Source: a phage | Sequence record: PV467749.1 | Reading direction: 5' to 3' (one strand) | DNA: 64,000 nt | Notes under the pieces: generated by a model | What the model saw: only the letters and a program-made list of their open reading frames with translations | Databases searched by the model: none | Told to the model about the DNA's origin: nothing | Shown: positions 58,669 through 58,750 of the stretch, in pieces | Numbering within the stretch: the first letter of the stretch is position 1 | Layout of the letters: every line of letters starts with the position of its first letter | Made by a program: the position numbers and the translations under genes

Positions 58669-58750
58669 TGGCCCAGGCGACAGGACTCGAACCTGCATAC
58701 TCCAGTTACTCGATTAACGACGATTTAGAAGACCGTTGAGATACGCCCGG
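58669..58750 (-). tRNA. Atypical tRNA-like element (possible degenerate or D-arm-less tRNA; anticodon-like loop UCU)
   Basis: Canonical T-arm GCAGG-TTCGAGT-CCTGT, acceptor CCGGGCG/CGCCTGG (C1-G72), CCA encoded, stem-loop ACGGT-CTTCTAA-ATCGT resembling the anticodon arm of the adjacent tRNA-Ser; no recognisable D-arm, abnormal spacing. Confidence 0.4.

Follow-up and report, generated by a model that had tools for sequence, protein, structure and literature searches.

What kind of gene, if any, is the 82-nt tRNA-like element that lies on the minus strand of a 64,000-nt stretch of phage DNA (record PV467749.1; the whole stretch is hereafter called the window), running from position 58750 down to 58669 and ending in an encoded CCA? 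A preliminary description of the window's sequence had offered a tRNA pseudogene, a tRNA-derived processing signal, or a decoy. Comparison of the element with its relatives leads us to a different reading, which we consider likely: the element appears to encode a functional tRNA-Arg(UCU) of non-canonical structure that would decode AGA, has a transposed core, and is one of a large family seen almost exclusively in phage sequence.

The element and its treatment by standard tRNA models

All four tRNA genes that ARAGORN recognizes in the window (Thr, Asn, Ser(gct), and Ser(tga)) lie on the minus strand, and the element follows the CCA of tRNA-Ser(tga) after a gap of 4 nt (AAAU). Its coordinates and this spacer can be read directly from the sequence, and the parts named in the preliminary description (a canonical T-arm, a C1-G72 acceptor stem, an encoded CCA, and an anticodon-like loop with UCU) are all present. 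The 5' part reads CCGGGCG UAU CUC A ACGGU CUUCUAA AUCGU CGUUAAUC GAG, and the 3' part continues after GAG as UAACUGGAGUAU GCAGG UUCGAGU CCUGU CGCCUGG G CCA. The acceptor stem has 7 bp, including C1-G72 and G3-U70; the anticodon arm has 5 bp and a 7-nt loop with U33 and A37; and the T-arm has 5 bp including G53-C61, a UUCGAGU loop that fits the UUCRANY consensus, and two invariant inner G-C pairs. The acceptor and anticodon stems are separated by a spacer of only 7 nt that forms no hairpin, and no open reading frame of at least 30 aa overlaps the element. The features of the locus are as follows.

58669-58750, minus strand: whole element, putative non-canonical tRNA-Arg(UCU) gene (sequence, family covariance model, Rfam tRNA match)
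58744-58750, minus strand: acceptor stem 5' strand, positions 1-7, CCGGGCG (pairs with 58673-58679)
58741-58743, minus strand: connector U8-A9-U10 (invariant in 43/43 sequences of the window's subfamily)
58738-58740, minus strand: helix P2 5' strand, positions 11-13, CUC (covariation, RNAalifold, model-free parse)
58720-58736, minus strand: anticodon arm, positions 15-31, stem ACGGU/AUCGU and loop CUUCUAA (5/5 pairs covary)
58727-58729, minus strand: anticodon UCU (within the loop CUUCUAA)
58712-58719, minus strand: linker CGUUAAUC, positions 32-39, with a conserved YRUUAA motif (3-5 nt in other subfamilies)
58709-58711, minus strand: helix P2 3' strand, positions 40-42, GAG (covariation, RNAalifold, model-free parse)
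58697-58708, minus strand: D-loop-like and variable-loop-like segment UAACUGGAGUAU, positions 43-54 (10/12 positions invariant in 43 sequences)
58680-58696, minus strand: T-arm, positions 55-71, GCAGG UUCGAGU CCUGU (covariation, Rfam alignment)
58669-58679, minus strand: acceptor stem 3' strand CGCCUGG, discriminator G, and CCA (sequence, covariation)
58755-58844, minus strand: tRNA-Ser(UGA), directly upstream of the element (ARAGORN, Rfam)
58855-58884, minus strand: promoter-like site TTGGAA-18-TG-n-TATAAT, 10 nt upstream of tRNA-Ser (consensus match only)

Standard tRNA finders handle the element poorly. ARAGORN makes no call on it with default or relaxed bacterial settings and, at 80% stringency, places only a badly paired "tRNA-Asp(atc)" there. 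Its mitochondrial mode (-mt) is silent by default and yields only a 56-nt fragment with -ps, and its tmRNA mode (-m) reports no tmRNA for an element that is only 82 nt long, though G3-U70 is present. The Asp call and the mitochondrial-type fragment were the only alternative cloverleaf registers that emerged from the bacterial, relaxed, mitochondrial, and tmRNA searches, and both were discarded. The Rfam tRNA model (RF00005) scores the element at 29.3 bits against a gathering score of 29 (E = 0.005), and its alignment deletes the D-arm and places a 20-nt "variable" insert ahead of the T-arm. A scan of the other Rfam families in E-value mode gave weak chance matches only, such as sX4, whose 23.6 bits fall short of its threshold of 70. 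The preliminary description had named a confident standard cloverleaf in a different register as the result that would overturn it, and ARAGORN and Rfam found none.

A covariance model that we built from the 43 sequences of the window's subfamily scores the window copy at 96.8 bits (E ~1e-23), well above what chance would give. The same model gives family members 85 to 102 bits, two divergent relatives 57 to 59 bits, and ordinary tRNAs at most 40 bits. Public records are inconsistent at the corresponding loci, which carry no feature, a "tRNA-Leu" (121Q), a "tRNA-TERM" (7t3), a "tRNA-OTHER" (Riker and Antha), a plain "tRNA," or a protein gene drawn across the element.

Distribution of the family and architecture of its core

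The window belongs to a jumbo phage of E. coli of the Asteriusvirus type. A 231-base stretch around the element shares 99.1% identity with phages Ecwhy_1 and CMSTMSU, and a 97-base stretch comprising the element and short flanks shares 100% identity with PBECO4. As a query on its own, the element hit 683 phage records, and in 241 of these the match covered 80% or more of its length. Carriers include Asteriusvirus, Felixounavirus (Felix O1 and its relatives), rV5-like Vequintavirinae, a T5-like Klebsiella phage, the Salmonella jumbo phage 7t3, the Streptomyces phage Stanimal, and many IMG/VR contigs. Full-length copies are 80 to 90% identical among phage families that have little else in common, with homology that spans position 1 to the discriminator or CCA between unrelated flanks.

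A pattern scan of IMG/VR for the window's subfamily recovered 74 loci with 43 distinct sequences. Three later scans added at least three further subfamilies, 77 to 84 nt long and with linkers down to 3 nt, all of which retain a small helix around the anticodon arm followed by UAAUUGG. The four scans together produced more than 120 distinct members; the search patterns fixed the D-loop-like motif and the T-loop, and many members are related, so the counts and P values reported here overstate the number of independent events. We also considered an origin in cellular genomes and rejected it: among 185,579 bacterial and archaeal species genomes (one each), the family pattern occurs four times, each time on a contig from a metagenome bin.

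The columns of the 43-sequence alignment correspond to element positions, and four helices covary in it: the acceptor stem (1-7/72-78), the anticodon stem (15-19/27-31), the T-stem (55-59/67-71), and a helix that we call P2 (11-13/40-42). Across the 43 sequences, 94.5% of the cells are paired compared to 65% in shuffles, with double changes at 18 of 21 pairs. All seven acceptor pairs and all five anticodon-stem pairs show compensatory changes across both 43 and 101 sequences. RNAalifold, run unguided, returns exactly these four helices; the single-sequence minimum free energy fold of the element does not yield them and has no greater stability than the folds of shuffled sequences (z = -0.38).

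P2 is only 3 bp long, and a possible fourth pair, 14:39, is unpaired in 34 of the 43 sequences. Its pairs 11:42, 12:41, and 13:40 form in 43/43, with 1, 16, and 7 double changes, respectively; on 101 distinct model-aligned sequences, P2 is 93% paired and the double changes rise to 22, 65, and 24. A regular-expression parse that uses no model finds all three pairs in 94 of 115 members, with 16 different complementary triplets, against a mean of 19.8 members when partners are shuffled. In segment 43-54, U43 and positions 47-54 are invariant among the 43 sequences and position 46 is variable; one A of the UAA in this segment is a G in L162b and three other members. We also asked whether CUC (11-13) might instead pair with the GAG that lies within UGGAG (49-51) and rejected this, because UGGAG is invariant while positions 11-13 vary and covary with 40-42.

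These patterns leave very little room for a decaying pseudogene, whether produced by tandem duplication or by partial deletion of a tRNA, and we regard this explanation as hardly credible. Standard finders do miss the element, and its anticodon arm is indeed close to that of the neighboring tRNA-Ser (16 of 19 positions match), as first described. However, ACGGU/ACCGU is the commonest anticodon stem in relatives from unrelated phages, where adjacency to tRNA-Ser is not conserved, so this likeness is no evidence of local duplication. Decay is also at odds with 80 to 90% identity across distant phage families, with pairing maintained in every stem by compensatory substitutions, with homologs that carry independent substitutions and are not recent horizontal copies, and with the clean separation of the family from ordinary tRNAs by the covariance model. 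By these comparisons, the element is a conserved phage gene and not a degenerate one.

The preliminary description also stated that the element has no D-arm and abnormal spacing. The normal place of the D-arm is in fact empty and the spacing is abnormal, but a D-stem and a D-loop-like motif appear to be present, split around the anticodon arm. Taken at face value, the empty D-arm position would describe a tRNA that truly lacks a D-arm, has a long hairpin in its variable arm, GUUA/UAAC (33-36/43-46), and adopts a Y-shape like that of mitochondrial tRNA-Ser(AGY). The alignment to the Rfam tRNA model matches this reading, and positions 34-36 and 43-45 could pair and are nearly invariant, which keeps the hairpin conceivable. 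The hairpin, however, shows zero compensatory changes, 8 sequences break its outer pair, and U35-to-C changes go uncompensated. It is missing from the subfamilies with 3- to 5-nt linkers, which keep P2 and the UAAUUGGA motif, and P2, which covaries strongly, overlaps the loop of the hairpin. Our test for class II features likewise returned neither a covarying variable-arm hairpin nor a D-arm in the element. We therefore rejected the hairpin and judge a truly D-arm-less tRNA to be quite improbable.

A normal tRNA follows the order acceptor, positions 8-9, D-stem 5' strand, D-loop, D-stem 3' strand, position 26, anticodon arm, variable loop, and T-arm. We propose that the element follows the order acceptor, D-stem 3' strand, anticodon arm, D-stem 5' strand, D-loop, and T-arm. 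Its connector U8-A9-U10 is followed by CUC, A, the anticodon arm, a linker of 3 to 8 nt across the family, GAG, and UAAnUGGA, after which about 4 nt ending in U lead into the T-arm. In the proposed mapping, P2 positions 11-13 are the equivalent of the D-stem 3' strand (canonical 23-25), P2 positions 40-42 are the equivalent of the D-stem 5' strand (canonical 10-12), and the GG and next A of segment 43-54 are the equivalents of G18, G19, and A20. The mapping follows from the attachments of the two strands: CUC and A join the anticodon stem as the D-stem 3' strand and position 26 do, and GAG followed by U runs into the D-loop-like motif as the D-stem 5' strand does. In phage slurp01, the canonical tRNA-Arg has exactly the D-loop sequence (GCAC AAUUGGAUA GUGC) that subfamily B carries as its D-loop-like motif, AAUUGGAUA; the corresponding motif in the window copy is AACUGGAG. 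The family thus resembles a tRNA whose segment 10-21 follows segment 22-43 instead of preceding it.

Could such a molecule still fold into an L? The tertiary contacts of a normal tRNA include U8-A14-A21, A9-A23-U12, G10-C25-G45, C13-G22-G46, R15-Y48, G18-Psi55, and G19-C56. Each new junction in the element joins segments that are tertiary neighbors in a normal tRNA (9 to 22-23, 43-45 to 10, and 21 to 46-48), which makes it plausible, on the basis of these general contacts, that the L-shape survives in the rearranged core. P2 could still stack on the anticodon stem, and the GG could still dock on the T-loop. The Levitt pair 15-48, taken as the "15" base and the last base before the T-stem, is A..U in 115 members, G..C in 3, and mixed in 2, an agreement with the three-dimensional mapping that is suggestive only, as cases with G15 are few.

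Anticodons, arginine identity, and the tRNA sets of carrier phages

The anticodons of 120 distinct members are predominantly those of arginine: UCU occurs in 73, ACG in 15, UCG in 8, and CCU in 7, for a total of 103. The other 17 members carry GAU or UAU (Ile), CAU (Met/Ile), UAC (Val), or CCA (Trp), and every identity seen in the family is served by a class I synthetase. In E. coli, A20 in the D-loop is an identity element for ArgRS. The base after GG, which would sit at the spatial position of A20 in our mapping, is an A in 103/103 arginine members and in 2/17 others (Fisher P = 3e-17, for members that are related). C35 with U36 or G36, as ArgRS requires, is present in the UCU of the window copy and in the arginine anticodons of 103/120 members. 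U33 and A37 are found in 115/115 members, A73 is found in all Ile-type members, and CCA is encoded in 64/115. The pair G3-U70, which the window copy shares with the Felix O1 copy and with the canonical tRNA-Arg genes of T5 and slurp01, is the alanine identity pair recognized by AlaRS, and charging of the window copy might therefore not be purely with arginine.

The position of the element is also informative. Ten sister-clade Asteriusvirus genomes (slurp01, G17, phAPEC6, and others) have a canonical tRNA-Arg(tct) in the slot of the element, likewise 4 nt after tRNA-Ser(tga), and no copy of it with at least 95% identity was found in the PBECO4 clade. The PBECO4 cluster consists of Gly(tcc), Ser(tga), the element, Ser(gct), Met(cat), Asn(gtt), and Thr(tgt), and no canonical arginine tRNA lies within 20 kb on either side of the PBECO4 element (approximately 40 kb of the 348-kb genome).

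The local arrangement could also suggest a signal for RNase P or tRNA punctuation that processes the transcript between tRNA-Ser and downstream genes, since the element lies between tRNA-Ser and three tandem 54-aa open reading frames with no terminator after it. In other phages, however, the element occupies varied contexts within tRNA clusters, and a processing signal would need neither a conserved anticodon loop nor an arginine-restricted anticodon nor an A20-like base. We consider this explanation very unlikely.

The complete genome of Felix O1 contains 25 canonical tRNAs, including Arg(ACG), and an unannotated copy of the element at 25951-26032; it contains no canonical Arg(UCU). AGA is the commonest arginine codon of Felix O1 (40%), and the authors of that genome remarked that a tRNA for AGA was expected yet missing (PMC3185647). 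In the open reading frames of the window, AGA accounts for 28% of arginine codons. Complementary sets are also seen in other tRNA clusters: L049 combines canonical Arg GCG, UCG, and CCU with an element bearing UCU, and L054 combines canonical Arg ACG and CCG with family members bearing CCU and UCU. Among element-holding clusters of at least 20 tRNA genes, we did not find a separate canonical Arg(UCU). L041 is the only contig with the element beside a canonical tRNA-Arg(UCU), which indicates that the two are not strictly exclusive. These gene inventories suggest that phage tRNA sets hold either an element or a canonical tRNA for a given arginine anticodon and rarely both.

The tRNA sets also bear on the possibility that the element is a tRNA mimic acting outside translation, either as a decoy for anticodon nucleases and other tRNA-directed defenses or as a titrator of ArgRS or of a tRNA-modifying enzyme. 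Phage tRNAs are known to counter tRNA-cleaving defenses, the fold is unusual and occurs almost exclusively in phage sequence, and a mimic of tRNA-Arg would also require the anticodon loop and the A20-like base. A mimic leaves unexplained the several arginine anticodons along with the Ile, Val, Trp, and CAU versions, the complementation of canonical isoacceptors within the same cluster (L049 and L054), and the swap with canonical tRNA-Arg(UCU) at one site, and it would leave Felix O1 with no reader for its commonest arginine codon. We regard a mimic as unlikely, if less so than the processing signal. The decoy and processing signal of the preliminary description thus both fit poorly with the arginine-box anticodons, the tracking of the A20 position, the sister-clade tRNA-Arg(UCU), and the complementary tRNA sets.

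Collectively, the anticodons, the A20 position, the synteny, Felix O1, the complementary sets, and the demand for AGA favor a working AGA-reading tRNA over a pseudogene, decoy, or processing signal. Such a tRNA would be cotranscribed with tRNA-Ser from the upstream promoter-like site, which has 10/12 consensus matches and an extended -10 in a consensus scan, and tRNA-Ser(UGA) is probably the 5' member of a dimeric precursor with the element. RNase P would cut 5' of C1, leaving a transcript whose CCA is already encoded, and the host ArgRS would charge it via C35, U36, the A20 equivalent, and G73. The charged tRNA would then read AGA, and probably AGG, codons that are frequent in this AT-rich phage and rare in E. 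coli. The E. coli ribosome, EF-Tu, and an aminoacyl-tRNA synthetase have been found to take a D-arm-less tRNA without adaptation (PMC11551756).

Significance and comparison with known tRNA systems

The broader claim is that the family, almost confined to phage sequence, represents topological isomers of the cloverleaf, a class of tRNAs that is active in translation and has not been described before. That the class is both functional and new is, in our estimation, about evenly balanced. By their anticodons, its members would be mostly arginine tRNAs, plus Ile, Met/Ile, Val, and Trp versions. In the literature on D-arm-less, permuted, and non-canonical phage tRNAs we found no description of this fold, in a search whose coverage of subscription journals was incomplete, such that a prior description is possible.

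Few features in biology are as conserved as the architecture of tRNA. If the family is functional, then an L-shape can be built with another connectivity, in a widespread natural family that operates in bacterial cells. It would offer a ready scaffold for orthogonal tRNA design and would account for the "missing" AGA readers of well-studied phages such as Felix O1. The family would also expose a systematic blind spot in phage annotation. Finally, it raises the question of whether an altered core shields phage tRNAs from host tRNA-directed defenses. We offer only tentatively, as a rather doubtful possibility, that the rearranged core persists by escaping host tRNA-targeting nucleases or decay enzymes that recognize the D-arm or elbow; ArgRS, EF-Tu, and the ribosome would still have to accept it.

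The closest known systems are the canonical phage tRNA-Arg(UCU) genes of T5, of slurp01 and G17, and of the T4-type AGA readers, which share a CUUCUAA-like loop, C1-G72, and G3-U70 with the element. The T-arm and 3' acceptor strand are approximately 90% identical to those of T5 tRNA-Arg, the D-loop sequence of slurp01 tRNA-Arg recurs in subfamily B, and the Asteriusvirus tRNA-Arg(tct) occupies the corresponding place, 4 nt beyond tRNA-Ser(UGA), and presumably does the same AGA-reading job. The element differs from all of these in having its D-stem 5' strand and D-loop after, and not before, the anticodon arm, so that no cloverleaf can be drawn. The element would work like a canonical phage tRNA-Arg(UCU) and probably descends from one; the two have their acceptor stem, anticodon loop, T-arm, and D-loop sequence in common.

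Translation can make use of tRNAs without a normal D-arm, as shown by D-arm-less mitochondrial tRNAs and by the engineered "mini HisT" of E. coli (PMC7609411, PMC11551756). Like the element, metazoan mitochondrial tRNA-Ser(AGY/UCU) and mini HisT have a short connector and no hairpin between the acceptor and anticodon stems. These molecules are approximately 60 nt long, have lost the contact between the D-loop and T-loop, and adopt a Y-shape, whereas the element is longer than a standard tRNA, has a covarying equivalent of the D-stem and a relocated GG motif, is encoded by phages, and would act in bacteria. We conclude that the element is not a D-arm-less tRNA of the mitochondrial type, as it keeps the D-stem equivalent and the GG and exceeds the normal length.

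Segment order also differs from the canonical one in the permuted tRNA genes of Cyanidioschyzon merolae and some other algae, in which the 3' half comes first and a circular intermediate restores a normal tRNA. The swap in the element is internal, and its termini are normal acceptor ends. Since its two ends form the acceptor stem, the element is not a tRNA permuted at the gene level, and the mature RNA itself must carry the rearranged order.

The allo-tRNAs and other non-canonical cloverleaves of bacteria and phages, with 8/4 and 9/3 acceptor/T arrangements (PMC5389517), are likewise natural tRNAs derived from metagenomes, with a fold that deviates from the standard one and that tRNA finders deal with poorly. 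They alter helix lengths within the cloverleaf, whereas the element family alters the connectivity of the core.

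Genes flanking the element in the window

The 82-nt predicted tRNA-Arg(UCU) is immediately followed downstream by small open reading frames (ORFs), and a tRNA gene split by an intron lies in the same window:

58161-58647, minus strand: a tandem run of paralogous ORFs, three in number and each of 54 aa (MTHEEWMNDINFRYSGIG...)
56388-56692, minus strand: tRNA(CAU) gene with a group I intron (Rfam group I intron model, 99 bits)
56692-56655, minus strand: 5' exon of tRNA(CAU)
about 56424-56388, minus strand: 3' exon of tRNA(CAU)

Each 54-aa ORF overlaps the next by 4 nt, and both PBECO4, from the same clade as the window phage, and slurp01, from the sister Asteriusvirus clade, carry 165-nt coding sequences at the matching position. 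The intron of tRNA(CAU), approximately 230 nt long, is inserted directly 3' of the anticodon, and ARAGORN makes no call for the split gene at 56388-56692. The PBECO4 counterpart, located in the corresponding place, is a tRNA-Met(cat) lacking the intron, so the clade is polymorphic for this insertion. In PBECO4 and slurp01, tRNA-Ser(tga) is also preceded, at a distance of about 1 kb, by a tRNA-Gly(tcc) gene (comparison locus L447, 18811-18883), and ARAGORN did not find this gene in the window (region compared, 59900-60100).

Public annotation of these loci

The GenBank record of PBECO4 lists zero tRNA features within the 40 kb examined, in contrast to the six tRNA genes identified there by ARAGORN. 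In Felix O1 (L207, NC_005282.1), the element at 25951-26032 is unannotated, and the RefSeq "HNH endonuclease" coding sequence (26003-26395) begins within it; the annotated start codon is therefore probably wrong.

Non-Arg and aberrant members of the family

Some members with the same rearranged fold have an anticodon for another amino acid: GAU or UAU for Ile, CAU for Met or Ile, UAC for Val, and CCA for Trp. Such members occur at comparison loci L104 (2425-2504), L162 (7666-7745), and L154 (4321-4400), as well as at L298, L312, L232, L256, L315, L313, L231, L239, L277, L316, L397, and L443. They mostly lack the A after GG, the proposed equivalent of A20, and for each identity seen in the family the cognate aminoacyl-tRNA synthetase is of class I.

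L041 (1522-1692) pairs the element with a canonical tRNA-Arg(tct), separated by 11 nt; L045 (3788-4168) carries UCG and UCU family members 220 nt apart; and in L054 (12999-13429), CCU and UCU members lie on either side of a small ORF. The 90-nt member at L159 (2260-2349), in which a segment of the anticodon loop is duplicated, is possibly a real pseudogene.

G3-U70 in the acceptor stem

The window element carries G3-U70 in its acceptor stem, as do the Felix O1 copy and the canonical tRNA-Arg genes of T5 and slurp01 (stems compared: window 58673-58679/58744-58750; comparison loci L002 1499-1580, L003 1457-1531, and L001 1621-1697). This pair is present in only 8 of the 115 family members, and its carriers might be mischarged. 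The Felix O1 copy additionally possesses G2-C71, G4-C69, and A73; together these make up the alanine identity set in all but the 1:72 pair.
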